In this document: positions 33,561-55,588 of the stretch, one piece after another
Layout of the letters: every line of letters begins with the position of its first letter
How positions within the stretch are numbered: the stretch's first letter is position 1
From: Candidatus Nanoarchaeia archaeon
GTDB lineage: Archaea; Nanobdellota; Nanobdellia; Woesearchaeales; SKGA01
DNA: 55,588 bases
NCBI GenBank assembly: GCA_028691765.1
Contig: JAQUYS010000001.1
Span: 1-55,588 of the forward strand
Direction of reading: 5' to 3'
Program-made: the position numbers and the translations under genes
Notes under the pieces: generated by a model
Told to the model about the DNA's origin: nothing
The model's input: the letters and a program-made list of their open reading frames with translations, nothing else
Database searches by the model: none

Positions 33561-34190
33561 TTATTTTAAGGCTTGAAAGATTTGTTCTATTTCTTTTTGA
33601 GGATATCCTTGGGAGATTAGATTGTTTTTTATATCTACTTGGGAATAACCTTGAGAAAGTAAAGATCGAACATATTCTTTTAATTGAAGGTTTATAGTGG
33701 GTTGTTTTTTATTGAGTTTAAATAATTTAAATAATAAAAATATTAAAAGAAGTATTAAAATAGATAATGTAGTCATTAATAGAATATTTGTTGTTTTTAA
33801 CTCAGTTGTTGGTTGGTTGTAAGTTTGTGTTTGCTCTTCTATATCTTGATTAGTTGTGATGGATAGTTGATTATTTGCGATTAATATTTCTTCTATTGAT
33901 TGTATTAATTCAGTTAAAAGAATGTCTTGTTCTATTTGTTCTATGTTTTGATTGAAATATTCTTTTAAATTGAGTATTTGAATTGGAGATAAGTAGTTAT
34001 TTGATTGTGTAATTTGTAATGAATTTTGTTCTATGTCCAAATATATCCAATTTGTAGTTTTAGGTTGTTCTAACGAATATATTGTTAAAGGAGAATCTAG
34101 AAAATCAATTTCACATTTAGTTGCATTTATTGATGATGCTGAAATTATTATAAGTATTAACCACATTAAACTATATGAGAATTGGTTCAT
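33561..34190 (-). CDS. Type I membrane protein (signal peptide, ectodomain, TM, 45-aa cytoplasmic module); last gene of the pilin-like operon
   Basis: Signal peptide MWLILIIISASSINA and TM ILLMTTLSILILLLIFLLF. The C-terminal TINLQLKEYVRSLLSQGYSQVDIKNNLISQGYPQKEIEQIF is shared with the C-terminus of 48963..52259. 20-nt overlap with the upstream gene. Confidence 0.6.
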   Translation of the reverse strand: MNQFSYSLMWLILIIISASSINATKCEIDFLDSPLTIYSLEQPKTTNWIYLDIEQNSLQITQSNNYLSPIQILNLKEYFNQNIEQIEQDILLTELIQSIEEILIANNQLSITTNQDIEEQTQTYNQPTTELKTTNILLMTTLSILILLLIFLLFKLFKLNKKQPTINLQLKEYVRSLLSQGYSQVDIKNNLISQGYPQKEIEQIFQALK

Positions 34191-37100
34191 TTAATTTCAC
34201 CTCTTTTACATATCTTTTACAACAGCCTCCTAAAATATTCAAAGCTTGTGTATTTATGGTGTTTGTTTCTAAGATTGAAGATTCGCCACAAATTAAATCC
34301 ATTGCATTTTGTATTGAATCTGGATCTGAAATTCCTAACGAGGACAAATAAGCATTAATTTGAGTTTGAGCTAAATTGAATGAGTCTTTTATTTCTATGG
34401 CTTTTATAGTTATTTGTTGTTCATCAAGTTTATTTGTATTGTTGAATTGGTCTGTTGTTGTTATAGTGATCTGATAATTTTTATCTTTTTCAAATTTTAA
34501 ATCATTCATTCCATCAGTCATGACATAATATTGTTTTGTTTGATTATTGTAATATAATTTATTTAGTTTTAAAGGATATAAAGATGTTAATAACAAATTG
34601 CTTGAAAATTCTTCTTTTTCATCAAGTCGTAATAGTATGAATTCATTTTGAGCAAAATCATTTTCAGTTAAGTAAAGATTGAAAGCATAAATATCTTCAT
34701 TTAAATTTTCGAAATTGAAAGACACTAAAACTGCTTCTGTATTTATGCATTTTAATTGCTCTTCAATATTTAAATTTAATTTTGACCATGTTGGCGGAAT
34801 CTTATCTTCAACATAAGCTGTAAATGAAACATTTTGATGGTCTTTAAATGATGTGATGAATCTTTGATTCTTTTTGTTGGAATAACAAATTGGAGGATCT
34901 GTTTCTTTGTCTTGGTAATAATACCAAGCAACATTGTTTTTATCTGTTTTGTAGAGGGCAAATAAATTGTTGGACACATCCCAAGACTGGATTAAATTGC
35001 CAGTTAATGAATTTGGATTTAGGATATCTGGAAGTTGATATATTTCAAAGTCCATATATGAATTTACCTTATTTTGGTTATTTGTAAATTTAAAAGTTAA
35101 TGATGTGGCTAGATTTGTTTCACTGCTGGAATCAATGAATTTTAAAGGATTAAATTCTAAAGCCAAATCTGGATACGAAGGATTAGTTTTACTTAAACCT
35201 TTAACGTTAATTAAATTTTTAACATAATAATTTCCCTCGAAATCTGGGAGAATTTGAAACATTTCTCCTTCAGGATTCATATGTAAGGTGTCTAAATAAA
35301 TTGGACATATACACCCTTCTTGTTCGTTTTTTTGGCAATCAATCATTTGATCTACGAATGAACTTCTAAATGAATCTATTTGTTTGAAGACAAGCCATTC
35401 TTTTACTTCTCCTGAAAGTTGTTCAAAATTACCTTGAACTAAGTTGGAGAAGAAACCAATTGTTTGTTGTAGTTGTAAATCCTTCATTTTTTCTGGATGG
35501 ATGTATGTGTAATCACTTGTGTGAATTATTTTGGAATTTGTGTTTGAAAATTTGGTTATTGCTTTGTCTATGCATTCTGTTTGACTTAACATTAAGCAAT
35601 CGTTGGCTAAGTAGGATATGAATTGTTCTAATACGTCGTATTTTTTTAAATCTATGTTTGCTGTTGTGGCGTAAGAAGATGTTATGGATATATGATTTTG
35701 AGAGTATGGTTGATTCTTTAAATAAATTGCTTGTGGTACAGAATCACATTGTTCAGAAAGTCCTTTGCCCATTAAATGAGGGTATCCCCAAGATTCTTCA
35801 ACTTTATTTTGCAAAGTAGTTAAATTTGTAATTGATTTTGACCATACTTCGAAAAAATCAAGTTTAGTTAAATCAGACCATTCAATAGATTCTTTTGGTT
35901 TTTTCAAACGTTTACTCGCTTCATTAATTATTTTTTTAGCATTACCTGGTCCAGAATTATAACAAATAGCGGTAAAATAAAAATTGGGATTCTCTTTAGC
36001 CATATATCCTGCATCAATTAAATAATTTTGGCACCACTTTAAATATTGTGCTCCCGATTCTATTCCTAGCTGAAGATAATTTATAGTAGTTCCATCCACC
36101 ACCTTAGATTCTTTATTAACTAAACTATCCCATTTACAAATAGTTTTAACATCATTACATGCATTCGGACTGATTTGCATTAAACCACAAAAATTATTGT
36201 TTCTACATGCAACTTCTCCAGACAAATACTTTGAAAGAGATGCTCCACCTGTTTCCGCATAAATTATGGCTTTAATAAATTCGGAAGGCAATTTTGTTCT
36301 TGAAGAACTACGAAGTATCGAGTTCGTTATAGCTCCATTATTTTTTAAATCATATTCATTTAATTGTTGTGTAAATTCATAATAATTAATTTCTTGTTGT
36401 CCTTTTCTAATTTGATCTTGAAGCCAAGCAGTAGAATCAAAATAAATTGAACAACTTTTCTCGGTTTCTTCGACTACAACTTCTTCTGTTTGTTCAGTTT
36501 GAACATTCTCTCCAAGAGGCAAATACCTTACGATTGCAGAGATTTGAGGATATAATGAATATGTTTGTGAATTTCGTATAGGTTCTTTTACTAAACCAAC
36601 ACCACCGAAAGAATGTATCACTTCATTGTTTCCAACATAAACCATCACATGTCCCATTGTTGTTTGATGATCTTTTTTTGTGAAGATTATGTCTCCGGGT
36701 TTTGCTAGTTTTAAAAGCTCTTGAGGCGTCATGGCTTTATTTGTTTTCTCCCATACTACTTCATTATTGGATTCTTTAAATTGCTCATAAAGTGCATGTG
36801 CACTTAATCTCACATCGGCTATTTGAGAAATATTTGCATGTTTACCAACCCACCAAACCCAACCTGAACAATCAAAACCAGGAATCATTAAATCTGTCGA
36901 CCCTGGAATGTTTCTTGGAGGATAATTTTCTTCAAACATATTTGAACATTTACCTCCTTCAGTTGAATCTGCGAAAGCGTAAGGGGACATTCCTCCCCAA
37001 ACGTAAGGATATTTATTGCCTGCATACATATATGTATTATAAAGTTTTATAGCTACGTCTGCAATGCAATCATTTGTTTGACAATTAACGATTTTTTCTT

Positions 37101-37695
37101 CACCACAACCACCTAATGGTCCAACTGGATAAGACATCGTTTCAACTAAATATTGAAATTCTCGACCAACAATGGGAACTTGTATAGGTGTTTGAGGAAT
37201 TAATTTTATATTTAATTTTGGATTTGCATTTGTTTGTTGATTTTCATAAGTTTGCGTTAAATCAAAACTATATTGAAAATTCATTAAAGAAATTGATTTG
37301 AATTTAGATAAATGTGTTTGAAGTTTATCATCTAATGTTTGTTTAAAGAATAATTCAAAATCAGGAACACATATTTGTTTATCTTTAGATAGATAAATTT
37401 GGTGTACGTGTTCACCACAGGAAGTCTGTTGTTTCTGAAGGTCAAATTGAAATTCAGAGACTGTGCTTTTTGTTGAACTTTTTAAAGATTGGTCAATGTA
37501 AGATGCTACTTCTTCCGCGTTTTGGTTTGATTGTAAAATAGATTGTACATTTTCTCCAACAATGATGTTTATATCTGATTTTTGAGTATAATTTAAAATG
37601 AATATGAACAAAGCCATAAATATAAATATCGCAATAAAACTAAGTCCGAGCGCTTTTCTTGATTTTTTTAAGACCTTGCCAGTATAATTTTTCAT
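34171..37695 (-). CDS. Large surface protein with pilin-like/anchor N-terminus, NlpC/P60 cysteine endopeptidase domain and SLT lytic transglycosylase domain (peptidoglycan hydrolase)
   Basis: N-terminus KKSRKA then LGLSFIAIFIFMALFIFIL. NlpC/P60 (about aa 205-375): YPYVWGG, GFDCSGWVWWV (Cys276), AKPGDIIFT, GHVMVYVG, EVIHS. SLT (about aa 465-595): FIKAIIYAETGG (catalytic Glu), FCGLMQISP, AICYNSGPGN. The remaining roughly 580 C-terminal aa are unassigned. Confidence 0.85.
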   Translation of the reverse strand: MKNYTGKVLKKSRKALGLSFIAIFIFMALFIFILNYTQKSDINIIVGENVQSILQSNQNAEEVASYIDQSLKSSTKSTVSEFQFDLQKQQTSCGEHVHQIYLSKDKQICVPDFELFFKQTLDDKLQTHLSKFKSISLMNFQYSFDLTQTYENQQTNANPKLNIKLIPQTPIQVPIVGREFQYLVETMSYPVGPLGGCGEEKIVNCQTNDCIADVAIKLYNTYMYAGNKYPYVWGGMSPYAFADSTEGGKCSNMFEENYPPRNIPGSTDLMIPGFDCSGWVWWVGKHANISQIADVRLSAHALYEQFKESNNEVVWEKTNKAMTPQELLKLAKPGDIIFTKKDHQTTMGHVMVYVGNNEVIHSFGGVGLVKEPIRNSQTYSLYPQISAIVRYLPLGENVQTEQTEEVVVEETEKSCSIYFDSTAWLQDQIRKGQQEINYYEFTQQLNEYDLKNNGAITNSILRSSSRTKLPSEFIKAIIYAETGGASLSKYLSGEVACRNNNFCGLMQISPNACNDVKTICKWDSLVNKESKVVDGTTINYLQLGIESGAQYLKWCQNYLIDAGYMAKENPNFYFTAICYNSGPGNAKKIINEASKRLKKPKESIEWSDLTKLDFFEVWSKSITNLTTLQNKVEESWGYPHLMGKGLSEQCDSVPQAIYLKNQPYSQNHISITSSYATTANIDLKKYDVLEQFISYLANDCLMLSQTECIDKAITKFSNTNSKIIHTSDYTYIHPEKMKDLQLQQTIGFFSNLVQGNFEQLSGEVKEWLVFKQIDSFRSSFVDQMIDCQKNEQEGCICPIYLDTLHMNPEGEMFQILPDFEGNYYVKNLINVKGLSKTNPSYPDLALEFNPLKFIDSSSETNLATSLTFKFTNNQNKVNSYMDFEIYQLPDILNPNSLTGNLIQSWDVSNNLFALYKTDKNNVAWYYYQDKETDPPICYSNKKNQRFITSFKDHQNVSFTAYVEDKIPPTWSKLNLNIEEQLKCINTEAVLVSFNFENLNEDIYAFNLYLTENDFAQNEFILLRLDEKEEFSSNLLLTSLYPLKLNKLYYNNQTKQYYVMTDGMNDLKFEKDKNYQITITTTDQFNNTNKLDEQQITIKAIEIKDSFNLAQTQINAYLSSLGISDPDSIQNAMDLICGESSILETNTINTQALNILGGCCKRYVKEVKLNEPILI

Positions 37696-38231
37696 TTCAG
37701 ACCTGTAGGTATTTTCTTTTTATTTGAAGGTATGACTTCACAATATTCATAAATTAATTCAATTCTTGACTCTGTTTCTTCATTTGAAGATAAAGATATT
37801 TTGGATAACTCAGAACACTTACGAAAATCTTCAATACCATAAATATATTGATTTATATCTAGTTTTAAAGATTTTATAACTAAAGTTACTCTACTATTTG
37901 GAATCTGAGAGAAATATTTTTGAGCAGAATTTAAAATTATTTCTTTAGTTATAGTATCGATTTCAAAAATATTTTTATACGTTAGATCTGATAACAATTC
38001 GGCATTAGTTATGTGTTTGTTGTAATGTATTGAAGTTAATTGCGAGTATGTTGTTAAATGTTTTTGTGCAAAATAAGATGTACTATTTAGAGAAGTGATG
38101 CCTTCACTTTGACTTGTTTTTATAGAAGATATAAATACTATTAATAAAATAGAAATTATCATTGCCCCAACCACTATAACTAATTCTAACCAATCTGAAG
38201 GCGAAAATACTCCTTTCTTAGAGAATTTCAC
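37692..38231 (-). CDS. Pilin-like (class III signal) protein
   Basis: Proposed GTG start at 38231 forms a GTGA overlap with the upstream stop. This gives (M)KFSKKG then VFSPSDWLELVIVVGAMIISILLIVFI. The track start at 38288 would overlap the upstream gene by 60 nt. Confidence 0.55.
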   Translation of the reverse strand: MKFSKKGVFSPSDWLELVIVVGAMIISILLIVFISSIKTSQSEGITSLNSTSYFAQKHLTTYSQLTSIHYNKHITNAELLSDLTYKNIFEIDTITKEIILNSAQKYFSQIPNSRVTLVIKSLKLDINQYIYGIEDFRKCSELSKISLSSNEETESRIELIYEYCEVIPSNKKKIPTGLK

Positions 38232-38680
38232 TGTATCACCCTTATTGATGCAGGAATAACCTCTCCTGAATTTAATCTTAAAGCGCATGGTTGAGTTATT
38301 TCTTGATTCGTTATTTGTCCGGAAAGTTGAGCGGACATAGTTTTAACATTTTCCTCTTTTGGGTAAACAATTACTTCTATTTGTTTAATTAATTCATTAG
38401 AAGTAAAACAAGCTTTCAAGGTTTCATCATTTATTTTATTTACATCTAAAATATTTTGGTAAACTCGATCTGTATTGATATCTTGATATGCAAAACAATT
38501 ATTAGTTATTGCCTCATATGTTAAAATTATATCTAAATTATCTGGAAGGGGATATTTTTTTTCAGCAGAATTTTGCATTGTGGCGGCTTGTAATGGAACA
38601 TAAACCGAAAGTAAAATTATTAAAATAATGTATAATGGCACATCGTCAGATATATTTGATTTTTTGCCTAGTCTCAACAT
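38228..38680 (-). CDS. Secreted/pilin-like protein
   Basis: MLRLGKKS then NISDDVPLYIILIILLSVYV. Own TATA box 27 nt upstream of the ATG. Confidence 0.5.
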   Translation of the reverse strand: MLRLGKKSNISDDVPLYIILIILLSVYVPLQAATMQNSAEKKYPLPDNLDIILTYEAITNNCFAYQDINTDRVYQNILDVNKINDETLKACFTSNELIKQIEVIVYPKEENVKTMSAQLSGQITNQEITQPCALRLNSGEVIPASIRVIQ

Positions 38681-38702
38681 ATACTTATTTTAAGCTTAAT
38701 TC

Positions 38703-38710
38703 TTTATAAA
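38703..38710 (-). promoter_or_regulatory. Internal TATA box within the pilin-like operon
   Basis: TTTATAAA is centred about 27 nt upstream of the ATG at 38680, inside the 41-nt gap after the stop at 38722. Confidence 0.45.
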
Positions 38711-38721
38711 TATTGAGATTT

Positions 38722-39570
38722 TCACTCAAAAATAGATGTAATTGATGCCCCTAACAGTTCTTCAAGTTCATTTGTTGTTTCTTGTTTAAATTTCTTTTCT
38801 AATTCAATAATTATTTCGTTTGAATTGCAATTAGTGCACATAAAAGGAATATCGTATAATGAGAAGGAATTAGGAATGTCTAAATTTAATTGATTTAATT
38901 TTTGATTTAGTTTTGTTGCTAGAGGTCCCAATAACTCTTGATTAGATGATGAATATTTAATAGTGGTCTTATCTAAATTAGAAACATTAAATATTATGTG
39001 AACTTTTGCAGATTCTTTAGTTTCGGATTTTATCAAAGGAGTAGCAATTTTATTGAATGAAATTAAAATTTCATTTATGTTTGGATCATTTATGGAAACG
39101 TACAAATATTTTTCTGTAAATTGTTGCGATAAAGAAATTGTTTGTGAAGGGTTTGAAGTTCCTTTTGAAAAAGATAGTTTATTGTATGTACGATCTATGG
39201 TTAATTGTGAATAAGGTATTTGTTTGTCTTCTGAATAGATAATTAAACCTAGGGGTGCAATTATATTTTGATCTCGATCATATGCTTGACTATATGCATT
39301 ATAATCACATAAAACTGCAGAAATAGAATTTTCATCAAATTTCATACAACGATTTTCAACATCTAATTGAGGATTAAAATAAATGTTGAAATTATTGGGT
39401 AAATAAGTAATTGTTTTAGTTGTGAAAGTTGTATCTAAAACAAGAGCTCTACTTACGGCCCCTTCATAAGAGACTTTACTAGGAGCGTATAATATTGCAG
39501 ACCCGATAATTATTGCAAATATGATGAACCCTAAGACGCTTAACATATCTCCTTTTTTATTATGAAACAA
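38722..39570 (-). CDS. Pilin-like (class III signal) protein
   Basis: MFHNKKG then DMLSVLGFIIFAIIIGSAILYA. 11-nt overlap with the upstream gene. Confidence 0.6.
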   Translation of the reverse strand: MFHNKKGDMLSVLGFIIFAIIIGSAILYAPSKVSYEGAVSRALVLDTTFTTKTITYLPNNFNIYFNPQLDVENRCMKFDENSISAVLCDYNAYSQAYDRDQNIIAPLGLIIYSEDKQIPYSQLTIDRTYNKLSFSKGTSNPSQTISLSQQFTEKYLYVSINDPNINEILISFNKIATPLIKSETKESAKVHIIFNVSNLDKTTIKYSSSNQELLGPLATKLNQKLNQLNLDIPNSFSLYDIPFMCTNCNSNEIIIELEKKFKQETTNELEELLGASITSIFE

Positions 39571-40915
39571 TTTCTTCTACCTTTTTTATTTCGAAAAAGT
39601 TTTCTTGATTCCAAGATATTTTATGTTTATCTCCGGTTTCGCATTCAATTAAAATTAAATCTTGAGTCACATATTCATAATCATCAAAACAAAAATTAGT
39701 TTGATTTGGCAATTCAAATAACAAATCAGTTTCAAATTTTTCTCTCCACCCCCCCATGTATGTCGACATCAAATAAGTTCCTTCTAAAAAATCAATGTTA
39801 ATTTTTATTTTTTGACCAACTTCTTCCGCAGATTCAAAAGGTTTTACAAAATGCCATGGATTAAAATCAGAAGATTTGGAATAATATTCTTTAACTTCTG
39901 ATTGACCAAATTGATTGAGGGGTTTAAAATCCCTAAAATAAACAACGATTAATTCAAACGCACGTTCATCAATGATTGAATCTAGGAAATCCTTATTTGC
40001 AGAATAGAGTGAATTTATAGTTACACCGATAAAATTGGAATATTTTTTATCTTGCAAATTATATTTTGTTAAATAAATTTGTACGGGCCATTTATCAAAA
40101 CCATATTCTATGGAATGTAATGAAGATGCTCCAAATCCTCCTAAAACCAAACCACCTGTCCAAAATTGCTCAAATTGTAATCTTTGTGCAATTTGCTCAT
40201 TATGTATTTTTGAAAATTGTTTAAAAAAATAATCATCATTATCCAATATATTAAATACTTTTAAAGACAATATTTCGAGAGAAATAGGATATTTATTTAC
40301 ATTTGACTTAAATTCAGATGTAACTTGTTGAAAATATTCTAATTTTCCTCGTCCATCTATAAATTGTGAATTTTGATTAGGAGCAGTGATACAATACGGT
40401 TCATTCAAACTAATTCCTTCAAAAACATTTTCATCTAGTAAATTTAATTTAGGTTCGTTATTTTCTTTTATAATATCCCATAATTTTAAATCATCTACAT
40501 AACAAATACATGCTCGATCATAACATGATGAAAGTTCAGGTCTTATGAAGTAAATATATGAATTGGTTGCTTTATCCGTTAAACGTATATCTCCTCTACC
40601 TTTTGAAAAAAACAAAATATATTCATTTTCTAAAAACGAAATTTCATCGGTTCTAAGCCATTCTGCATTTGAATAAACATCAACATCATAATACTCTCCT
40701 AAAAATTCTTCTTTAAAAGAAATCCCTTTATTCAAATCTAAATCAACTAATTTTTGCTCTATTTGGGACAACATCATGACGTTATTAACAAATTCTGTTT
40801 TGGTTGTTTGACGAGCATATAAACTTCCTTGAGTAAATAAAAAGTAAAGAAGTATAACTACGATAAGTATGCTCACCATGTGTTCCCAAAGTAACTCAAA
40901 TCCTTTTTTATTCAT
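39560..40915 (-). CDS. Pilin-like (class III signal) protein, 451 aa
   Basis: The start at ATG 40915 forms an ATGA overlap with the upstream stop. MNKKG then FELLWEHMVSILIVVILLYFLF. Confidence 0.6.
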   Translation of the reverse strand: MNKKGFELLWEHMVSILIVVILLYFLFTQGSLYARQTTKTEFVNNVMMLSQIEQKLVDLDLNKGISFKEEFLGEYYDVDVYSNAEWLRTDEISFLENEYILFFSKGRGDIRLTDKATNSYIYFIRPELSSCYDRACICYVDDLKLWDIIKENNEPKLNLLDENVFEGISLNEPYCITAPNQNSQFIDGRGKLEYFQQVTSEFKSNVNKYPISLEILSLKVFNILDNDDYFFKQFSKIHNEQIAQRLQFEQFWTGGLVLGGFGASSLHSIEYGFDKWPVQIYLTKYNLQDKKYSNFIGVTINSLYSANKDFLDSIIDERAFELIVVYFRDFKPLNQFGQSEVKEYYSKSSDFNPWHFVKPFESAEEVGQKIKINIDFLEGTYLMSTYMGGWREKFETDLLFELPNQTNFCFDDYEYVTQDLILIECETGDKHKISWNQENFFEIKKVEEIVS

Positions 40916-42521: not shown

Positions 42522-42679
42522 CAGTCTCCTCCAGGAATTAACGAATCAGATTTAGTATAAAGCAAGTAAGATAAATATAATACTACACATATAGTTACCA
42601 GCGTTATAATTATTGTCAAAAGAGATTGTCCTTTTTTATTAAATTTTAAATTTAGGATATTTATAATTTCTTTAATCAT
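42521..42679 (-). CDS. Mini pilin-like protein, 52 aa (not in the ORF track)
   Basis: My translation is MIKEIINILNLKFNKKGQSLLTIIITLVTICVVLYLSYLLYTKSDSLIPGGD. ATGA overlap with the upstream stop and TGATG overlap with the downstream start. It exactly fills the apparent gap between the two ORFs. Confidence 0.6.
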   Translation of the reverse strand: MIKEIINILNLKFNKKGQSLLTIIITLVTICVVLYLSYLLYTKSDSLIPGGD

Positions 42680-47335: not shown

Positions 47336-47337
47336 TT

Positions 47338-48423
47338 TTAATATAGTTCTATGCAATTCTTTTCTAAAGCTAATGCCTGGTTTCGTTTTTGGATTTGATT
47401 TAATACCGATGATATTTCGTTAATTTTATTAAACGGATTGTCTAGATGGGGAGTTTCTCCTTCGAACAATTGTGGTAACCAATCATGTGGTCCTTCTAAA
47501 ACAATTAATCCTAAATAGTTTTTACAGGATGTGCTTAATGAATTTGCATCATTCAATAAATTAATTTTCTCATATTGAAGTATTGAAGTTATTTTTAATT
47601 TGTCAAAAGCTTTATTCATCATACATTCATAAAAATCTTTGTCGTCAGAAAATAAAGCGGCGTAAAGACTTGCAGAACCTAAATATTGTGTATTGGTGCA
47701 TTTTCCATCTGGATAATCACTTGCAGTTTCACAATAATAAACTGTTCCGCTTTTGAAAATGTTTGAGTTATCGTTTGGTTTGATAAAAATATGTTTTGAA
47801 TTTTCTCCAGCCACAACATAATCGCCCTCACCACAATCTTCTCCTTCGCATAATTTTATAAATGTTGAAAATTTATAATTCGCTCTTGTGTTGATTTGGT
47901 TTAATTGAACTGCATCTCCTAAATGAACACTTAAATTTTTTGGAAACTGTGAATACAATAACTCAAAATTATATGAAGACTCATTGTAAAAGAAATAACC
48001 TTGATTTTTGTTAGTAACGTAAAGAAATGTTGTAATAGATAATCCTTGTTCATCAGGAAGTTCCCATTCTTTAGTCCAAGTATATATGTTGTTTCCAATT
48101 AATTCTTTGGGTGCGAAGATTACATCATATTTTATGTCTGCTGCTTTAATACCATTTAATTTGTAATTAAATAAATTCTGAGTTGAATCACATTGAAACT
48201 CTAAATTAAAACCAGAAGGTAAAACATATTCTTTTACGGTTCCTGATTTTTGTGCTGTGGAATCTAAAATAGAACTTAAAGTTCTAGCTAAACTCATTGA
48301 AATGGAAGTATCTGACTTTTGAGATTGTGAAGATATCATCATGAAGAAAAATCCCAATAAAACTGCACCCACAATTAATACAAACACCCAATTAAATTGT
48401 ATTTCTACTTGTGCTTTTTTCAT
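47338..48423 (-). CDS. Class III signal peptide (MKKAQ-type) pilin-like protein, 361 aa
   Basis: MKKA then QVEIQFNWVFVLIVGAVLLGFFFMMI. Confidence 0.62.
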   Translation of the reverse strand: MKKAQVEIQFNWVFVLIVGAVLLGFFFMMISSQSQKSDTSISMSLARTLSSILDSTAQKSGTVKEYVLPSGFNLEFQCDSTQNLFNYKLNGIKAADIKYDVIFAPKELIGNNIYTWTKEWELPDEQGLSITTFLYVTNKNQGYFFYNESSYNFELLYSQFPKNLSVHLGDAVQLNQINTRANYKFSTFIKLCEGEDCGEGDYVVAGENSKHIFIKPNDNSNIFKSGTVYYCETASDYPDGKCTNTQYLGSASLYAALFSDDKDFYECMMNKAFDKLKITSILQYEKINLLNDANSLSTSCKNYLGLIVLEGPHDWLPQLFEGETPHLDNPFNKINEISSVLNQIQKRNQALALEKNCIELY

Positions 48424-48443: not shown

Positions 48444-48953
48444 TTAATTTGTTGATGGATGTGCGGTATCTGATTCCTCTTCTTCTTTAACTTGTATTTT
48501 TACAGTTCTTCCTTGTCCTTCAGTTATGAATGTAAATCTGCTTGCTTTTCTTTCAATACAAAAATAATCTGAATCCATAACTATTTCTTCCATGTAACCA
48601 ACCAATTTAACTTCTTTCCCATCATAAATAAATATGTTGTTAGTTCCAATTGAATTTTCCATAACGGTGTTTAGATCATCGTAGGGAGTTTTTGAGTCTA
48701 GTGAATCTACTTGTGATGAAACAAAACAAAGATAAGTATAATCGCATGGTGCAAAGGGATTGTGTTTTAACAAAGAACCATAATCTTTTGAATCTGAAAT
48801 TGTTTTTTTCAACTCTGAAGCAAACGCAGCATAATCTGCAGTACATTTGTTGTCAAGCAAATTACCTATCCCTTTTGTTGCAAATAACACTATTGTTGCC
48901 ATTATAATAAGGGCGAATATTATTGTAAAAACTTGGCTTGTTTGTGCTTTCAT
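48444..48953 (-). CDS. Class III signal peptide (MKAQ-type) pilin-like protein
   Basis: MKA then QTSQVFTIIFALIIMATIVLF. The GAGGT SD overlaps the upstream stop. Confidence 0.6.
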   Translation of the reverse strand: MKAQTSQVFTIIFALIIMATIVLFATKGIGNLLDNKCTADYAAFASELKKTISDSKDYGSLLKHNPFAPCDYTYLCFVSSQVDSLDSKTPYDDLNTVMENSIGTNNIFIYDGKEVKLVGYMEEIVMDSDYFCIERKASRFTFITEGQGRTVKIQVKEEEESDTAHPSTN

Positions 48954-48962
48954 ATTTTAACC

Positions 48963-51900
48963 TCAAAGATGATGTATTTGTTCTTCTTTAATCAATCCTT
49001 TCTGTAATAATTTATAAATTATGTCATTTTTAGTCAAAGGATCTAATTTTCCATCATCTTGAAGCATTTTGAAAAGTGTTTTTAGGTTAGAAACTTCTAA
49101 ATTAATTGTTTTATTTTTATTAGGATTATTCTTTACAGCGTTATTGTATACTTCTTCAACAAATGAATCTACATCTAATTTTTTAAGTGATGGATTTTTG
49201 GAATTAATTAAAGTTTTTCCTTTTAATCTTTCTTGTAATGATTTTAAATCAAGAGATTGATTTAATTGAGCTAGTTTTGAAAAGGTATCATTTTTAGGAG
49301 TGGATTGTGGTTTTTCTTCTAAATGAGGAACTTTAATTGCTTTTTTAGGAATTGGTTTTTTAGTGCTTGAGGAAGATAGATTTCTTAAATGAGTGAATGG
49401 GTCGTCATCAACACCAGAATACTCAGATAAGTCAAGATATTCTTCATCCATTCCTTCATCTAGTTTTCCATGATTTTTTAATCTAGCTTTACGAGCTAAA
49501 TCATCCGCATCTAATGAAATATCTTGATCGCCTAATTCATCTGTTTTAGAAGAAATCTCTGTTTCTGGAACTTCATCCTCAACATTGAAAGCATCCAATA
49601 AACCTTTTCTTGATTTTAATCTATCTTCAACAATTTTTCCTCGTTTCTTTTCTCCTTCTTCTTTACGTTTTTTTAATTCAGCTAATTTCTTTCTTCTTTC
49701 TTCTGCCGACATTAAACTTAATTGTTGCTGTCTTTCTTGTTCAGCTTGTTGTTGCATTCTTTGGTTTTGAATTTCTTCTTCGGCTTTATTGTTTCTCCAG
49801 TAATAAATGAAATAAGATCCGCCACCAATTGAAATTAAACCTAATATGATTAAAATTATAGCTAAAATGGATGAACTTCCATAGTCTTCATAAACGGGTT
49901 CTTCTTCAGACTCGAATTCAGATTTTAAAACGCATTCACCGTAATAATTACATTCTTCATTAGTTGCACAATCTGCATCAGTGTCGCATGAAATAAAGTT
50001 TGATGAACATATGTCATCGACACATTTTAAAGAAGATTTACAATCTGAATCTCTAACACAATCTTCTCCTTCTGCTTTCTTTAAATCTTCAGGGTCAGTA
50101 CAAATACTTTGGTGACAAACTAAATCGCTAAAACAATCTGAGTTTACAGTACAGTTCTCTCCTTCAGCATTTGGTGTTTGACCACAAACACTTATGTAGG
50201 CACAACTTCCTCCACAATCAATTCCTTCTTCATCTGAATCTTTTATTTTGTTAAAACAATGTGGAACATAAGTTACTATTTTTGAAAGAGTGTTATAATT
50301 ATTATTTAGATCTGAAAATTTGAAACATAATGTTTTAGTTTGATTTACAATTATATTTTGAGTTGAATATGCCGCTGTGTTAGTTTCATAGTCTTCTGGT
50401 TTACATGAACCGAATGAACCAAAACCATATTTAAAATCAGTTGCACAACCAACATTATCTGTGCATGTTAATGTTGCTTTAATGCCTGTAGTTGCAAGAC
50501 TTAAATTTACTTTTCCTTGAGGTTTTTGAATATCACAACGAGTGTCTGTACTTTGCACTACAAGAATGTTAAAAACTTTTTCTGTTCCTTTGTTACCTGC
50601 ATAGTCTATGGGGAAAACTGTCCATTTGAATGTTGACCCGATAGGCGCTTTTAAACCTGATTTAGTTGCTGAATTCGAAGGTGATTGTTGTGCATAGATT
50701 ATGTTGTTGGTTGAATTTACGAGTGTGAAATTGTAATACTTTACGTCTGTACTATTACTTTCAACGGATAATGTTAGGGAAGATATTTCTTTATCTGTAC
50801 AAGCGAATAAGGATGATGTTGCTTCGACTGGAGATGGAAGAGTCTTATCGACAATATATTCAAAAGTATACAAAGATATTCCTGTGGTAGCACTAAATTC
50901 AGTTCCGATATAGTATGTTCCTTCTTCCGTTTTTGAAGTGGTTAAAGTGTGTTCAGTTTTATCTGTAGGTATGGAAGTTAAATTACAAAAATCATTTGAT
51001 TGATTTTTTAAACAATAACTCATTTCAGATAAAATATTTGAAGTGAATTCATGATTTTGAGTATTTGTATTAAAATATTTTGTTTTTTGAATTACTGAAA
51101 TTGTTTTGTTTAGTAATAATTCGAATGAAACATCTTTAGTGGTTACTATTCCTGGCAAATTTAAACAATTTAATTTTAAAGAATATGTCAAAGGATCTTG
51201 ATTGAAAAAATTTGTAACGCCATAATAATTTGGTTCAGACATAAAATTAAATAGAAAATTTAAATTCTTAACGTATGCTTCAGTAACGGATGTATCTTCA
51301 GTTATCCAATCTGATGTAGGGGTATAAGAAGGAAAACCATCTTGATTTGGATTTTGTACAAATGAGTAATTACAAATAACTGGATCTGAAGAAATTATAT
51401 TCAATGATGTAGAAATTTGTTTAGGATCAATTATTTTTAAAGGATCAATATTTACTTCTATTGAAGCAGGTGTTAAATCATACCCTATTGCAAATTCTTC
51501 TGCAAAAAAATAATCATTATCTCCTTCTGAAGCTTTACATCCAACAACATATTTTCTCATACCTAATTCATCAGAAGAATATATTTGTAATTCATTTTGT
51601 GATTGAGGAACTAAGTTGGTTGCAATGATCTTGTGTTTGTTATCGCTTTCTGTCAAAAATTGCGTTGTTAATTGATTATATGAATATAAATTATTTTGAT
51701 ATTCATTACCATTAGATAAATATCCGATTTTACATACGGCAGGTATTTCTGTTTGAAACGTTACATTATATGGAACATAATTTTGATACACTAATCTCGA
51801 AGCAAACGGATTTAAAGGTTCAACAACTTTTATCCATGGTTGAGTTGCATTAAGAACTGCATTTACTTTAATTAATTGAGTGTTTCCATCACCATCTTGA

Positions 51901-52259
51901 GCAGGAACTTCTAAAACATAATACCCATTAAATAAATGTATTTTATTGCCTTGTGAATCTACAGGGAAAAAAGTCATATTTGAACTAGTTATTGTTTGAT
52001 TTAAATTGTAAGATTTATATAATTCTCCGGCAAAGGAAGTTGTGGAATATAATAATGGGGAATTGATTAAAGTTACAGGTTGATCTGAAGAGTCAAACTT
52101 TAAAATAAATTCAGGTTTTGAAATAGTTAGATGATCTGGAAAGGTTAAGTTACGTTCATAATAATCATCAAACTCATTTGGCAAATAATAAGATACAGTT
52201 AGAGAAGAAACTAATAGAATAAAAATAAAACTTATAAATAAAATAAATACTTGTCTCAT
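48963..52259 (-). CDS. 1098-aa type I membrane surface protein: signal peptide, roughly 775-aa ectodomain ending in Cys-rich repeats, TM, 277-aa charged cytoplasmic tail
   Basis: Signal peptide MRQVFILFISFIFILLVSSLTVS. Three C-x(5-6)-DC-x(5)-C-x(4-5)-C repeats: EGENCTVNSDCFSDLVCHQSICT, EGEDCVRDSDCKSSLKCVDDICS, SCDTDADCATNEECNYYGECV. TM ILAIILIILGLISIGGGSYFIYYW. The tail has a Q/E/K-rich coiled coil and a terminal TINLEVSNLKTLFKMLQDDGKLDPLTKNDIIYKLLQKGLIKEEQI module. Confidence 0.7.
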   Translation of the reverse strand: MRQVFILFISFIFILLVSSLTVSYYLPNEFDDYYERNLTFPDHLTISKPEFILKFDSSDQPVTLINSPLLYSTTSFAGELYKSYNLNQTITSSNMTFFPVDSQGNKIHLFNGYYVLEVPAQDGDGNTQLIKVNAVLNATQPWIKVVEPLNPFASRLVYQNYVPYNVTFQTEIPAVCKIGYLSNGNEYQNNLYSYNQLTTQFLTESDNKHKIIATNLVPQSQNELQIYSSDELGMRKYVVGCKASEGDNDYFFAEEFAIGYDLTPASIEVNIDPLKIIDPKQISTSLNIISSDPVICNYSFVQNPNQDGFPSYTPTSDWITEDTSVTEAYVKNLNFLFNFMSEPNYYGVTNFFNQDPLTYSLKLNCLNLPGIVTTKDVSFELLLNKTISVIQKTKYFNTNTQNHEFTSNILSEMSYCLKNQSNDFCNLTSIPTDKTEHTLTTSKTEEGTYYIGTEFSATTGISLYTFEYIVDKTLPSPVEATSSLFACTDKEISSLTLSVESNSTDVKYYNFTLVNSTNNIIYAQQSPSNSATKSGLKAPIGSTFKWTVFPIDYAGNKGTEKVFNILVVQSTDTRCDIQKPQGKVNLSLATTGIKATLTCTDNVGCATDFKYGFGSFGSCKPEDYETNTAAYSTQNIIVNQTKTLCFKFSDLNNNYNTLSKIVTYVPHCFNKIKDSDEEGIDCGGSCAYISVCGQTPNAEGENCTVNSDCFSDLVCHQSICTDPEDLKKAEGEDCVRDSDCKSSLKCVDDICSSNFISCDTDADCATNEECNYYGECVLKSEFESEEEPVYEDYGSSSILAIILIILGLISIGGGSYFIYYWRNNKAEEEIQNQRMQQQAEQERQQQLSLMSAEERRKKLAELKKRKEEGEKKRGKIVEDRLKSRKGLLDAFNVEDEVPETEISSKTDELGDQDISLDADDLARKARLKNHGKLDEGMDEEYLDLSEYSGVDDDPFTHLRNLSSSSTKKPIPKKAIKVPHLEEKPQSTPKNDTFSKLAQLNQSLDLKSLQERLKGKTLINSKNPSLKKLDVDSFVEEVYNNAVKNNPNKNKTINLEVSNLKTLFKMLQDDGKLDPLTKNDIIYKLLQKGLIKEEQIHHL

Positions 52260-52278
52260 AGTTCCTCTTCTTTAATTT

Positions 52279-55200
52279 TTAAGGCCAATTTGGATATGGA
52301 ATAACTACATCCGTTTCTTCAACTGAACCTTTGATTATTAATTGTGGTCTTATAAAGCCCATATCTCTAACCCTCGGATCAACAATAGTCCAATGAATTG
52401 GTTTGTTTCCTCCATTATCCTCGGAGTAATACGCAATATTACAACCATCACAAAGACGATAGCCTTGTTTAAATGATGATGATAAAGCAATATCTGTTTG
52501 ATTGTTTTGGATTGAAGTAAATGTGTTTCCTTGACATATTGTTCTATTAGTAACAAAATAATCTAATGAAGAGTTATAACTTGCACCACTAACAATACAA
52601 TAATTAATTTTACTGCAACCAAACCATTTAGTTGAATAATCTTGTATGTCGCTACATCTTAATCTTAACGTTCTTTGATTTTTCCAAAGGAACGTAAATA
52701 ATTGATCAGTATATGGTAATTCTACGTTATTGATTACATCAAATATGTTTGTCATTGGAGGTTTTTGATCAATAGTTAATGAAATTGCATCCATGGTATC
52801 TTTTTCTGTTATTTCTCCCGAATCTGTGAAATTACATGATGTATAAATATAATATGTTTTATTTTCTGGGTGTATTTTTAATCGATCCATTGCTTCATCG
52901 AAATTTATTGTATGAACTATGTTGTCAGATGTTATAAATTCTCCTCGTGATTCACCATATGCTGGAATTTCACCAGTAGATAAATTCAATATGTCAAATC
53001 TACACTCTGCATCATATTGATTTTCAATAGATAATTCAACATCTAAAACATTAGATAAACCTGATTTGGGTTGAGCATTTCTAATACTTTGATCTCCTTC
53101 AATAGAAATCTCTATTTGAGCTTCAACTTTGTTTTTATACACGTCCTCGCAATGTATTGTATACAGATATAAATCGTCCTGTAAATTAATATACTCTCTG
53201 CTGAATGAAGTTTCCATTACTCCCGATATATCCCACATTTCTATTTCCGGGCTTACTCCTGAAATTGTTTGCGATCTAAGTTTTGCATAACAAATAGCAT
53301 TTTCGGACGTATTGAAAGAAACGGATAGATTAGAACGATATTCGTCATTGTTTGTTTTGAATGTTATTATACTTGGCTCAGCAACAGTTATATTTGGAGA
53401 AGTCATGTCTATGAAGATTGTTTGGTTTTTTACGACTTCCATATTTTTTGCAAAGTCTTGACTAAAATAACGTAAAACATATTCTCCGTCTGCAACAAAT
53501 TTAATTTCATCTAATTCCTCTGGGAAAAGATATTTTGGATATGTTGAAGTTATGGTTGTGTTGTTTGGATTTGGAACCGGAGGTAAACTGCTTCCTTTTT
53601 GAGAGGAATCATCTTCCAAATATTCAAATGAAACCATCGTTATCAATTCACGATTCGCATCGGAATTAACAACGTTATCTTCAACAACAAAAGGTAAATT
53701 TATTAATTCGTTTATGCCGTAAGTTAAATCCTCTCTCAAAGTTAAATTTGTAGTTGGAGGCATAAAATCAAGTAAACAAATATTAGTTAATTCTAATCCT
53801 GCATTTGATGTGGCAAAAGATACACAATCATCTTTGAATTTATTGGAGGCATTATCTAAAACATTTGTTTCAATTAAATCGTCTGAATCTTTAAAACAGT
53901 AAGTATTTTCAGATTCCCATTTACAAACACCTAATGAAAAAAAATCATTGGAAAGAGTGGGCAAATTATTTCCTAACCAATATGCCGGTGTACGAATTAA
54001 ATCTAATGAGTGATTCGTCCCATTTATACAATCCAATTCACTTGAATATAAATAACAAGATGTATCTCTTTTAGCAATACATGATGGAATTAGATTTGTT
54101 CTACTTGGAGGAACAATTGCACTTTCTAATGCTAGAGTGAATGGAGATGTAATGTGATTTTCTCCAACATAATAACATGTTCCATAAACATCTTGACACA
54201 TTGTTTCGTCACAAAAACCTAATGGAGAGTCAGTATCACAAAGAACGCAATTTTGTTGTTCTTCATTTTGAGGTCGGCAAACACCAATACCTAATTCTTC
54301 ATCATAGTAATTCCACTCGCATAGGTCACTTTCGTTTTGGAATTTATAACAAGGATCATTACTACAAGCGTATTCGCTTTCGTATGAATAACAAGAATCT
54401 ACATCCTCACAAGCTTGGAATTTTGGTGCGAGTGTAACTTGTTCATCTTTATAACAAATACCAATTAAATTATCTGCTGTTGGAGTGGTTAAACCTGAAA
54501 ATTGATTTTCTAAGCAATTGAAATCAATTTCTTCATTTGACAAAGTATATGCTTTCACGTTAAAATTATTATCTGAGAATAAACCGAATAAACCATTACA
54601 TTTTTCACAAGGTAATTTCTCTTTACACGTTGCACCTGTTGTGGTTTCAACACAAAACTCTCCAGGAGATGAACAAGCTTTAGTTTGATTATATATTAAA
54701 TTGGTGTATGTTTGTTGTGTTCCATAATATTGACAACCACCATATGAGTTTGTTGATGAATGACAGTTATCTCCCGCTTCATGAGGTAACAAACAATAAT
54801 CATTTACAGGGGTTTTTATACAGAATCCTGAAGAGTATTCTCCTTGCGAAAGATCACCAAAATTACAAAGTAAGTCATCTGAATCTTCATTTTTAACGCA
54901 AACATCAAAACAATAGGTTGTGTCGGGTTTTAATAAATTTTCAAAAACATAATTTTTTTGAGTTGTTCTACGAATAAATTTATTTTCTTCTAAACAGTCA
55001 TCGTCTGAATTTATTTCGCATGCAGATACTTCGTAATAATAAACTTTATCTTCACAGTCTTCAGCATAATGCCAATTTAATTGAACATTATTGGTTCCTT
55101 CTTGGAATTTTATTCCTGCAAAAAGTACATCTCCATAAATATTTGCAGATGAATTAATGTTGTTATATAAATTAAAAACATTTGTTAAAGGATTCATTAT

Positions 55201-55588
55201 AGTTCCAATTCCTTGACTACCATCGAAAGTATATTGAGTTATATCATTTGATAAAAATATCGGATGTTTATTTTCACAAGAATCTAAATAAGCAGGATTG
55301 TCAATACAAGCATCACAACCACATTCCCAAGGCATTCCACCACAAGAATCAGTGCATGTTTGATAACAAGAACTTAAATCATATTTACAATAGGGCGTAC
55401 AAACTACTTCATCTTCATTCATAAAATTAAAATCCAGACAAGTTAAATTATCTGTAAATCCACTTCCATCTCTAAGAGAAAAATTAGTTCCGTCACATTC
55501 TTCACCCATATCTACAATTCCATCACCACACGTAGATGAAAAATCTACATAACATTGTTGTACTAAATCACCTAAAGAATAATTATAT
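52279..55588 (-). CDS. Giant Cys-rich secreted/surface protein (5' end lies beyond the window; more than 1100 aa)
   Basis: The reading frame stays open upstream of the track ATG to the window edge (YNYSLGDLVQQCYVDFSSTCGDGIVDMGEECDG...). CGDGIVDxGEECDG matches the Myxococcus-type cysteine-rich repeat. Cys is dense through the first roughly 550 residues, followed by beta-rich, Cys-poor modules. Confidence 0.7.
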   Translation of the reverse strand, partial: YNYSLGDLVQQCYVDFSSTCGDGIVDMGEECDGTNFSLRDGSGFTDNLTCLDFNFMNEDEVVCTPYCKYDLSSCYQTCTDSCGGMPWECGCDACIDNPAYLDSCENKHPIFLSNDITQYTFDGSQGIGTIMNPLTNVFNLYNNINSSANIYGDVLFAGIKFQEGTNNVQLNWHYAEDCEDKVYYYEVSACEINSDDDCLEENKFIRRTTQKNYVFENLLKPDTTYCFDVCVKNEDSDDLLCNFGDLSQGEYSSGFCIKTPVNDYCLLPHEAGDNCHSSTNSYGGCQYYGTQQTYTNLIYNQTKACSSPGEFCVETTTGATCKEKLPCEKCNGLFGLFSDNNFNVKAYTLSNEEIDFNCLENQFSGLTTPTADNLIGICYKDEQVTLAPKFQACEDVDSCYSYESEYACSNDPCYKFQNESDLCEWNYYDEELGIGVCRPQNEEQQNCVLCDTDSPLGFCDETMCQDVYGTCYYVGENHITSPFTLALESAIVPPSRTNLIPSCIAKRDTSCYLYSSELDCINGTNHSLDLIRTPAYWLGNNLPTLSNDFFSLGVCKWESENTYCFKDSDDLIETNVLDNASNKFKDDCVSFATSNAGLELTNICLLDFMPPTTNLTLREDLTYGINELINLPFVVEDNVVNSDANRELITMVSFEYLEDDSSQKGSSLPPVPNPNNTTITSTYPKYLFPEELDEIKFVADGEYVLRYFSQDFAKNMEVVKNQTIFIDMTSPNITVAEPSIITFKTNNDEYRSNLSVSFNTSENAICYAKLRSQTISGVSPEIEMWDISGVMETSFSREYINLQDDLYLYTIHCEDVYKNKVEAQIEISIEGDQSIRNAQPKSGLSNVLDVELSIENQYDAECRFDILNLSTGEIPAYGESRGEFITSDNIVHTINFDEAMDRLKIHPENKTYYIYTSCNFTDSGEITEKDTMDAISLTIDQKPPMTNIFDVINNVELPYTDQLFTFLWKNQRTLRLRCSDIQDYSTKWFGCSKINYCIVSGASYNSSLDYFVTNRTICQGNTFTSIQNNQTDIALSSSFKQGYRLCDGCNIAYYSEDNGGNKPIHWTIVDPRVRDMGFIRPQLIIKGSVEETDVVIPYPNWP

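Follow-up and report, generated by a model that had tools for sequence, protein, structure and literature searches.

The gene cluster described here occupies positions 33561-55588 of a 55,588-nucleotide (nt) stretch of DNA from a Candidatus Nanoarchaeia archaeon (contig JAQUYS010000001.1), referred to throughout as the window. This cluster is probably the pilin and accessory gene set of a lineage-specific, Woesearchaeota-type type IV filament (TFF) system, powered by an assembly ATPase and platform protein encoded at 9996-14514. The system is probably a device for contacting bacterial hosts. Three hallmarks of the TFF superfamily are encoded here: an ATPase, a platform protein (by transitive homology) and class III signals (at the level of motif); a class III signal peptidase and a pilin fold are putative. 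The reading is built on sequence features, conservation and genomic linkage, from which cleavage of the predicted leaders, assembly, surface display and a bacterial target are inferred.

Gene layout and conservation

Open reading frame (ORF) listing and translation divide the cluster into 19 ORFs (W01 to W19, from 55588 down to 33561; Table 1). All lie on the minus strand. Eighteen are complete and one, a giant, is open at the window end. Junctions vary between -61 and +108 nt; 14 of the 18 overlap or measure 20 nt at most. The -61 overlap shrinks to about -1 if W17 uses a likely internal GTG start. The preliminary description of this DNA had reported such a minus-strand run with mostly tight junctions, and the listing agrees. 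The run extends beyond 33561, down to 31151; co-directionality alone does not establish a single transcription unit. The single operon of that description gives way to a conserved core, a variable module, an inserted KsgA gene and a lineage-specific ORF (W19).

Ninety-five related loci (cited below by L numbers) were collected from Woesearchaeota/Nanoarchaeota metagenome-assembled genomes (MAGs) and metagenomes. They came from homologues of the hydrolase W18, from a W06-family scan of one genome per species (13 loci), and from a W04-family scan of JGI metagenomes, which gave 196 relatives and 80 loci kept. Synteny, put forward as a check in the preliminary description, holds: gene order is conserved across related Woesearchaeota/Nanoarchaeota loci, and a common order is seen in a Woesearchaeota MAG and in the 1.07-Mb contig ERZ26052130 ctg19821c. 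The comparison splits the cluster into two modules. Module A is the conserved core, with one or two giant adhesin-like proteins, W03-W06 in fixed order and the small pilin W08. Module B (W09-W18) is lineage-variable. The order W04, W05, W06 is kept in 51 of 61 loci.

Public records hold no pilin annotation for the cluster families, and all matches are "hypothetical" or mis-named. In the parts of the archaeal TFF census texts available to us, this gene order, these families and a pilin-borne murein hydrolase are not described. The earlier statement that the gene order matches no described locus therefore stands for public annotations and for those parts of the censuses.

Prepilin-like N-termini are concentrated in the cluster

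A class III-type N-terminus, [N/S]-K-K-[G/A/S] followed by an uncharged helix of about 26 residues, is present in 15 of the 19 cluster ORFs (W03-W06 and W08-W18). Signals were called with our own motif rule, not with FlaFind. None of the other 33 window ORFs has a K/R-[GAS] site with a hydrophobic helix (0/33 versus 15/19; Fisher p = 8.6e-10). The motif is lacking in W01, whose N-terminus lies beyond the window, in W02 and W19, which have Sec-like signals, and in W07 (KsgA/RrnaAD). Internal start codons are required for W05, W10, W13, W14 and W17, and the N-termini of orthologues agree with those starts. Only one site, that of W16, ends in K-S.

Across the window and the related loci, 592 N-termini pass the motif rule, and statistics were taken on the positions that the rule leaves free. 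K occupies position -3 in 78% of them; N, S or M occupies position -4 in 56%, and D or E falls within +1 to +8 in 61%. The median uncharged span is 26 residues. Every orthologue showing the motif has G, A or S at -1 and K/R at -2/-3, and the motif is held though the remaining protein drifts to 22-48% identity. The Module A families each have a signature (arrow, predicted cleavage site): K(A/G/S)↓Q...Q(I/V)F for W03, K(G/A)↓.(V/I)E(I/V)QFNW(I/L)F for W04, K(A/S)↓Q.QM.ET for W05 and KKA↓QTEI(I/M)G for W06. Orthologues in the metagenome loci are class-III-like in 27/30 (W03, complete sequences), 80/82 (W04), 65/65 (W05) and 54/56 (W06) cases. A glutamine at +1 is found in 65/65 W05, 51/54 W06 and 23/27 W03 orthologues, while W04 is mixed. 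Acidic residues are conserved at +3/+6, near the mature N-terminus. Profile-profile comparison relates the W04 family to the W06 family (90% probability), and only through their first ~41 columns. Type IV pilins usually share only their N-terminal part.

These N-termini match, as motifs, the sites mapped experimentally for the Epd pilins and for PibD substrates. EppA, which needs the +1 Gln, cleaves Epd pilins at KG↓Q or RA↓Q, and the PibD sites are KA↓I or RA↓L (PMC4371748). All 15 N-termini quoted in the preliminary description were located in W03-W06 and W08-W18. The archaeal prepilin-peptidase pattern that it saw in them is borne out by the small residue at -1, K/R at -2/-3 and the near-invariant +1 Gln in three of the four Module A families.

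An assembly ATPase and platform are linked to the cluster

The preliminary description also placed an ATPase and platform pair at 9996-14514. Both assignments hold up, the first by direct matches and the second through homologues. The ATPase is of the GspE/CpaF/FlaI type: its best matches in the PDB are A. fulgidus GspE (2OAP, 6.5e-25), CpaF and FlaI, and its NCBIfam FlaI/TadA matches fall below the cut-offs. The adjoining 741-aa protein has no direct Pfam, NCBIfam or PDB match. An exhaustive search gave 961 representative homologues at E<=1e-3, of which many align as two separate halves. T2SSF (PF00482) is present in full-length homologues (E<=1e-60); in P0123 it scores 40.5 bits, above gathering, in two stretches. 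By transitive homology the protein is a fused, internally duplicated platform of the TadC/FlaJ/PilC class.

The pair lies 19 kb from the pilin cluster, but other loci bring the two together. In L014, Module A is followed directly by an ATPase of 59% identity and by homologues of the window genes at 14638-15027 and 15183-15596. The 15183 homologue adjoins Module A in L025 and L021, and L025 also has three 5-transmembrane (5-TM) paralogues there. These arrangements connect the pilin genes with the ATPase region, although the two stand apart in the window. The genes at 14638-17489 gave no family or PDB matches, and because their homologues travel with the ATPase or with Module A they are likely unrecognised parts of the machinery. 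The three 5-TM paralogues of the window were considered as A24 peptidases and rejected, since no GxGD was seen on reading the sequences and there was no PDB or Pfam match.

Evidence against a filament system

Several observations weigh against this reading. An A24 prepilin peptidase (PibD/FlaK/EppA) was not found among the scanned window ORFs or in the examined neighbourhoods of related loci. The scan covered the whole cluster and 21 of the 33 other ORFs, those between 6170 and 33429. No pilin-like protein of the cluster and no small-pilin orthologue matched PF04021, PF07790 or the NCBIfam pilin and class III models, even at E<=1-10. Foldseek found no PDB match at E<=0.001 for models of W06 and of the W18 N-terminal domain (N-domain), its best-scoring matches being ribosomal or COMMD proteins. 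Confidence in the W18 N-domain model is only moderate, and a break separates its TM helix from the next helix. The ATPase and platform genes stand 19 kb away. Filament formation, cleavage, hydrolase activity and a bacterial host are all deduced from sequence.

Three checks proposed in the preliminary description, namely archaeal pilin models, AlphaFold with Foldseek, and a peptidase search, thus came out negative within these scopes. What it had said of the window itself is upheld, as no archaellin, FlaF/G/H or prepilin peptidase was matched among the cluster and the 21 other scanned ORFs. Polytopic ORFs near Module A in other loci were rejected as peptidase candidates, being Vut_1, LGT or, by eye, SpoIIM-like. 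Curated labels for the pilin-like proteins were also rejected: Pfam (down to E=10) and NCBIfam gave only noise, namely Col_cuticle_N, EB1 and DUF948. With no significant PDB match from Foldseek for either model, the pilin fold is putative; the globular parts would be new folds, or else have diverged too far to match. The two models are compatible with a pilin-like "lollipop". In the AlphaFold2 model of W06 (pLDDT, the model's own confidence score, 85.9), an N-terminal helix of ~58 residues (2-59) is followed by two short helices and a 4-stranded sheet. That of the W18 N-domain (pLDDT 71.6) has a TM helix, the break, a 46-residue helix and a beta-sheet.

The missing peptidase and the lack of pilin model and fold matches would suit uncleaved signal anchors. 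On this account the 15 proteins are bitopic type II membrane proteins of a surface coat or complex, neither processed by a peptidase nor assembled by the ATPase and platform. A Lys-rich n-region before a TM helix also fits the positive-inside rule in an AT-rich, Lys-rich proteome, and the uncharged span is of TM length. A plain anchor, however, gives no rationale for the small residue at -1, the near-invariant +1 Gln or the acidic +3/+6 residues. The other membrane and secreted proteins of the window all lack the motif, and the genes sit beside the TFF ATPase in L014 and beside its neighbour genes in L021 and L025. A 52-aa helix-only protein (W11) and an 87-aa protein from a family of thousands (W08) are also hard to explain as anchors. 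We regard this explanation as improbable.

Module A has giant proteins, four pilin-like proteins and a candidate major pilin

The first two genes of the cluster encode the Cys-rich giants of the preliminary description, a label that the Cys counts of W01 and W02 support (Table 1). W01 has weak fn3 and Cys-rich repeat matches, and homologues stand ahead of Module A in L005, L011, L014 and many metagenome loci. W02 has an ectodomain of ~770 aa (Cys-rich repeats at 680-780), a TM segment at 798-820 and a K/E-rich cytoplasmic tail of ~280 aa. With this TM segment and tail it spans the membrane and could link parts assembled outside to components in the cytoplasm. In related loci, the place directly upstream of W03/W04 is taken by homologues 972-1749 aa long that carry Big_13, TSP3 or CarboxypepD_reg. 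A role for W02 as a PilY1 analogue was rejected: it is a type I membrane protein, its homologues carry Ig-like/TSP3 domains, and Pfam models of PilY1-type domains found no match in W02 or in five homologues scanned.

Many related loci have a further class-III-like gene upstream of the giant (K[KR][SGA]↓QV[ST].F.I.G, 164-660 aa). It is found at L007 1849-2343, L008 1023-2699, L009 1769-2998, L015 41-841 and L013 1-1983 (minus strand). For this reason the cluster probably extends beyond the window edge (>55588).

W06 has 45 homologues, all hypothetical and none with a Pfam domain. W08 is the candidate major pilin. Alignment shows an extremely conserved helix, S(M/I)N.III.AAIAL.VLV, in its family. 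This family, from Woesearchaeota/Nanoarchaeota/DPANN, numbers at least 3,113 protein clusters at E<=1e-3, each of them hypothetical or mis-named. Paralogues lie in tandem or nearby in L005 and L007. The gene has a strong Shine-Dalgarno (SD) sequence, and upstream of it an 85-nt gap contains a TATA-like TTTAAATA; these features suggest a promoter of its own. Between W06 and W08, with no gap to W06, lies the KsgA gene W07. It occupies this spot only in the window and in the close relative L004, and is absent from it in L001/L005, L003 and other loci. W07 is an inserted housekeeping gene outside the system.

Module B ends in a pilin-like peptidoglycan hydrolase

The pilin-like proteins of Module B vary in their +1 residue and have larger C-terminal parts; the module also encodes the helix-only W11 and ends with W18. 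The same order is found in L001/L005, L003 and L004; the module is partial in L008, L009 and L016 and absent or replaced in L011-L015. Downstream of W06 in the metagenome loci, 181 of 269 same-strand ORFs are class-III-like, versus 8 of 117 on the opposite strand. Counterparts of W11, 52-64 aa long, occupy the same position in L001, L003 and L004. The W17 orthologues begin MRNKKA↓MFFLDW (L001) and MNKKG↓SQTINW (L003).

W18 carries two enzyme domains, NlpC/P60 and SLT, so that the murein hydrolase named in the preliminary description is found with both Pfam matches and catalytic motifs. GFDCSGWVWWV and GHVMVYVGNNEVIHS align to the catalytic motifs of LytE. SLT domains have a catalytic Glu in an E-S/T motif, with GLMQ and YNxG motifs following. 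In W18 these are present as E481-T, GLMQ at 504 and YNSG at 579. The catalytic motifs of both domains are thus intact. The SLT domain had no pairwise PDB match.

All nine W18 homologues (9/9) start with [KR][GA] and a helix and share the conserved N-domain of ~200 aa. Their enzyme modules vary: SLT, PF11860 muramidase and, by eye, a second NlpC/P60 and an M15-like domain. In L008, L009 and L016 the gene at the W18 position, immediately before RPA, has the N-domain without a hydrolase, and L016 has a separate pilin-like SLT protein. Because the N-domain is conserved with differing or no hydrolase, W18 is read as a pilin-like scaffold with inserted murein hydrolase domains. The idea of cargo on a pilin stem fits this family, whose members keep the signal while the hydrolase modules change.

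A hydrolase of this kind could instead remodel the archaeon's own wall, as VirB1, FlgJ and BfpH-type enzymes do, or the cluster could be an acquired conjugation-type module resembling a monoderm type IV secretion system (T4SS). Membrane-anchored bifunctional hydrolases with SLT and NlpC/P60 (CHAP-like) domains are typical of Gram-positive conjugation systems, and PDB matches for the W18 hydrolase (E 5e-3 to 0.4) include Tn916-like/CTn cell wall hydrolases and entry 4FDY. Neither the cluster nor the scanned flanks hold VirB4/VirD4/VirB6-type genes, and the only nearby ATPase is of the GspE/FlaI type; the T4SS reading was rejected on the lack of VirB4/VirD4. Murein synthesis is not known in this archaeal group, and the literature sees such enzymes as directed at bacteria (PMC8204110, PMC9723730). 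The hydrolase-free orthologues at the same position indicate that the hydrolase is not needed for assembly. The swapping of the SLT domain between near-identical strains (see below) fits target-driven diversification, not housekeeping. Own-wall remodelling or conjugation is accordingly very improbable.

The last ORF, W19, has no counterpart between the hydrolase gene and RPA in L001 or L003. It is lineage-specific, and its membership of the cluster is doubtful.

Module B and the SLT region appear to be replaced between strains

L004 is the closest relative of the window. The DNA of W04-W08 is 95-96% identical between the two, and the flanks are 94-98% identical. In W09-W17 (window 37692-45222; L004 2145-9816), by contrast, DNA identity falls to 67-73% or the DNA is unalignable, and protein identity is 34-48%. 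In W18 it returns to 94% over the first 383 aa. Compared with P0001, W18 is 98-100% identical, but only 40-60% over the SLT domain (residues ~400-650; window 35750-36500). These patterns point to recombinational replacement between strains at W09-W17 and in the SLT region. Such cassette replacements would fit diversifying selection on a host-contact device, and their occurrence at strain level suggests selection for changing target specificity. Cluster proteins are 25-48% identical to their L001 orthologues, versus 64% for the adjacent RPA (32329-33429) and 88% for the ORF at 26193-26693. Judged by these identities, cluster proteins evolve much faster than their neighbours.

L004, L006, L012-L014 and L016, which have this Woesearchaeota-type locus, come from MAGs titled "uncultured Methanosarcinales archaeon" (binchicken/SRP co-assemblies). 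These titles are probably wrong.

Table 1. Features of the cluster, of W18 and of the associated loci in the window. Arrows mark predicted cleavage sites.
Feature	Position	Strand	Description
W01	52279..55588	minus	Giant Cys-rich secreted/surface protein; at least 1102 aa, 58 Cys, without C-terminal TM; frame open at window end
W02	48963..52259	minus	Type I membrane protein, 1098 aa; Sec-like signal; 28 Cys
W03	48444..48953	minus	Module A pilin-like protein 1, 169 aa, MKA↓QTSQVF...
W04	47338..48423	minus	Module A pilin-like protein 2, 361 aa, MKKA↓QVEIQFNWVF...; conserved Cys in globular part
W05	46829..47335	minus	Module A pilin-like protein 3, 168 aa from ATG at 47335, MKKA↓QLEMGETIF...
W06	46344..46832	minus	Module A pilin-like protein 4, 162 aa, MKKA↓QIEIMG...; family with conserved Cys
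W07	45609..46343	minus	KsgA/Dim1 rRNA adenine dimethylase; Pfam RrnaAD 1.5e-30
W08	45260..45523	minus	Candidate major pilin, 87 aa, MFWNKKG↓SEMSMNIIIIAAIALLVLVIL...; small Cys-rich C-terminal knob
W09	43783..45222	minus	Module B pilin-like, 479 aa, 26 Cys, FNSRKG↓SGLPMSF...; orthologues in L001, L003, L004
W10	42676..43674	minus	Module B pilin-like, 332 aa from ATG at 43674, MKKA↓SSGIKYIGIL...; L001 orthologue MKKA↓NVGMGVV
W11	42521..42679	minus	Helix-only pilin-like, 52 aa, FNKKG↓QSLLTIIITLV..., mature ~35 aa; Flp/EpdE-like size
W12	41442..42521	minus	Module B pilin-like, 359 aa, MFNKKA↓NQQLVSIVAV...
W13	40912..41436	minus	Module B pilin-like, 174 aa from ATG at 41436, MNDKKG↓ISFLMELLIVV...
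W14	39560..40915	minus	Module B pilin-like, 451 aa from ATG at 40915, MNKKG↓FELLWEHMVSIL...
W15	38722..39570	minus	Module B pilin-like, 282 aa, FHNKKG↓DMLSVLGFII...
W16	38228..38680	minus	Module B pilin-like, 150 aa, LGKKS↓NISDDVPLYIIL...; L001 orthologue FNKKG↓SASEKVGVYVV
W17	37692..38231	minus	Module B pilin-like, ~179 aa from GTG at 38231 (SD-like GGGTGAT upstream), (M)KFSKKG↓VFSPSDWLELVIVV...
W18	34171..37695	minus	Pilin-like peptidoglycan hydrolase, 1174 aa, signal KKSRKA↓LGLSFIAIF
W18 N-domain	residues 1-200 (nt 37096-37695)		Conserved
W18 NlpC/P60	residues 230-373 (nt 36577-37008)		Pfam 1.1e-10; C276, H349, H361
W18 SLT	residues 463-599 (nt 35899-36309)		Pfam 3.4e-5, 23.8 bits versus gathering 21.3
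W18 C-terminal region			~570 aa
W19	33561..34190	minus	209-aa ORF; Sec-like signal, C-terminal TM
Assembly ATPase	12214..14514	minus	766 aa, ATPase core ~residues 290-700; Pfam T2SSE 3.3e-12
Platform protein	9996..12221	minus	741 aa, polytopic, internally duplicated; overlaps ATPase ORF
Small soluble coiled-coil-like protein	14638-15027	plus	
Small soluble coiled-coil-like protein	15183-15596	minus	
Three paralogous 5-TM proteins	15606-17489	minus	~205 aa each
Archaeal RNase P RNA	27733-28023		Rfam match

Setting of the cluster

The window has a G+C content of ~29%, and the RNase P RNA match (Table 1) marks it as archaeal. About 30 kb of it is syntenic with the "Candidatus Woesearchaeota" MAG GCA_050187915.1 (RPA, ABC transporter, NAC and methyltransferase genes; protein identity 44-88%), which makes this a Woesearchaeota-type DPANN genome, placed in Nanoarchaeota/Nanobdellota by newer taxonomies. 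A sigma-70 promoter and terminator scan of the window was uninformative, this being archaeal DNA, and an exact-sequence look-up of one window protein found no match. Past RPA lie a polysaccharide deacetylase homologue (31608-32339), with a hydrophobic signal-like N-terminus and Polysacc_deac_1 matched by Pfam on its L001 orthologue, and a YdjM-like membrane protein (31151-31618). The two follow RPA in L001 as well. A deacetylase of this kind could also act on murein or chitin. Elsewhere in the window, Rfam finds a tRNA on the minus strand (9800-9956, 38.8 bits), and its 157-nt span implies a long intron; ARAGORN finds none in the window.

Comparison with known systems

The preliminary description named the Sulfolobus bindosome as analogue, but both the Epd (System 1) pilus and the tip complexes of bacterial minor pilins come nearer. 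In Methanococcus maripaludis the Epd pilus (System 1, ATPase clade 1) is likewise encoded by a multi-gene cluster with several minor pilins and a very small major pilin. Both have processing sites of the form K/R-G/A↓Q, with the +1 Gln required in Epd present in Module A, and both have duplicated platform modules. Epd complexity has been called "on par with bacterial T4P" (type IV pili; PMC4858521). The differences are several. The 9-TM peptidase EppA and the FleN/MinD and transglutaminase genes of Epd are not seen here. The platform is one fused 741-aa protein, where Epd has two genes. The pilin-like families here have no curated-model matches, and Module B, with non-Gln +1 residues, large cargo and a peptidoglycan hydrolase, has no Epd counterpart. 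As regards distribution, archaeal TFF censuses place Epd/System 1 in some DPANN, and "some Nanoarchaeota" are reported to have subsystem 4A (PMC4858521; bioRxiv 10.64898/2026.04.22.720090).

Module A also recalls the bacterial minor-pilin tip complexes (GspH-I-J-K; FimU-PilV-W-X with PilY1). In both, a fixed series of four pilin-like genes, with products of unequal size, precedes the major pilin gene and adjoins that of a very large adhesin-like protein which is not a pilin, and acidic residues are conserved near the mature N-terminus. The comparison is an analogy. There is no sequence or Foldseek similarity, and W02, a type I membrane protein, has a cytoplasmic tail.

The modular pilins PilB and PilC of Streptococcus sanguinis and the Sulfolobus bindosome resemble W18 in setting a functional module on a class III signal and a pilin-like N-terminal module, and in retaining the N-terminus while the cargo changes. 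The cargo of W18 is two murein hydrolase domains, not an adhesion or sugar-binding module, and the pilin fold of its N-domain is putative. The Bas system moreover has substrate-binding proteins (SBPs) linked to ABC transporters and BasE/BasF. Here the cluster has no SBP domains, and the ATPase falls outside BasE.

This bears on a further explanation, in which the 15 proteins are class III substrates of something other than an extended pilus. They could build a short pseudopilus, acting like the piston of a type II secretion system, with the giants secreted and the hydrolase released, or a bindosome-like surface assembly that holds cargo. Many of the pilin-like proteins are large and one is small, the cytoplasmic tail of W02 would make it an envelope-resident component, and class III cargo of the Sulfolobus bindosome works without a visible pilus. 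Archaeal TFF systems are also turning up with non-pilus roles, according to a recent census (bioRxiv 10.64898/2026.04.22.720090). Against this, the W08-type small pilin family is conserved, abundant and provided with paralogues, and looks like a shaft-forming major pilin. The bindosome form was rejected, as the cluster has neither SBP domains nor ABC transporter linkage and the NCBIfam BasE match reaches 51 bits against a cut-off of 1000. We consider a pseudopilus or bindosome-like assembly unlikely, though less so than uncleaved anchors.

Large murein transglycosylase proteins have been described as a hallmark of small-genome Woese-/Pacearchaeota and read as evidence for bacterial hosts; Castelle et al. 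2021 and Vigneron et al. 2022 proposed that such proteins bind or degrade bacterial walls (PMC8204110, PMC9723730). W18 resembles these fam00969/"Module 98" lytic transglycosylases by description, as a large extracellular SLT protein of the same lineage. Those reports name no pili, pilins or class III signals and describe neither the NlpC/P60 domain nor a conserved pilin-like operon. Saccharibacteria, of the candidate phyla radiation (CPR), offer another parallel by description: these ultrasmall putative episymbionts have T4P proposed or shown to act in host binding. They are bacterial, with canonical PilA/B/C/D, and are not known to have a pilin-borne murein hydrolase. In its working, the cluster would resemble a type IV pilus whose tip is a set of minor pilins and whose pilins are modular, as a new, unannotated archaeal TFF variant.

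A proposed mechanism and its significance

If the cluster does encode a TFF system, a prepilin peptidase encoded elsewhere would trim the short basic leader, and the ATPase and platform would pull the hydrophobic N-terminal helices out of the membrane. W03-W06 would form an initiation or tip complex, as bacterial and Epd minor pilins do, possibly docking W01 and W02. W08 would polymerise into the shaft, and Module B proteins would be minor, cargo-bearing subunits. W18 would set a DL-endopeptidase-type domain and a lytic transglycosylase on the filament or at its base. At the point of contact it could thereby make a local opening in the murein of the bacterium, be it partner or prey. The cluster may in that case be an episymbiotic penetration apparatus. 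The fullest form of this proposal is a dedicated filament with giant adhesins and a pilin-borne bifunctional murein hydrolase, which attaches to bacterial cells and breaches their walls locally, and whose host range is retuned by swaps of Module B and the SLT domain. This we advance tentatively, with less confidence than a filament system as such.

The cluster bears on which organisms are hosts of Woesearchaeota and their relatives, a group that ranks with the most widespread of uncultured archaea, and on how they attach. Earlier literature offered isolated "large murein transglycosylase" proteins and a block of lineage-specific families of unassigned function. Four points now give the hydrolase a mechanistic setting: its gene closes a conserved pilin-like cluster, it shares the prepilin-type leader of its neighbours, its scaffold occurs with or without the hydrolase, and the cluster is linked to a TFF ATPase. 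In metagenomes the system can be sought by its small-pilin family and by two N-terminal markers, AQTEI(I/M)G and EIQFNW(I/L)F. If the reading is true, thousands of small "hypothetical" or mis-named "DUF948" proteins would gain a function, and these archaea would have an organelle for cross-domain episymbiosis with, or predation on, bacteria.

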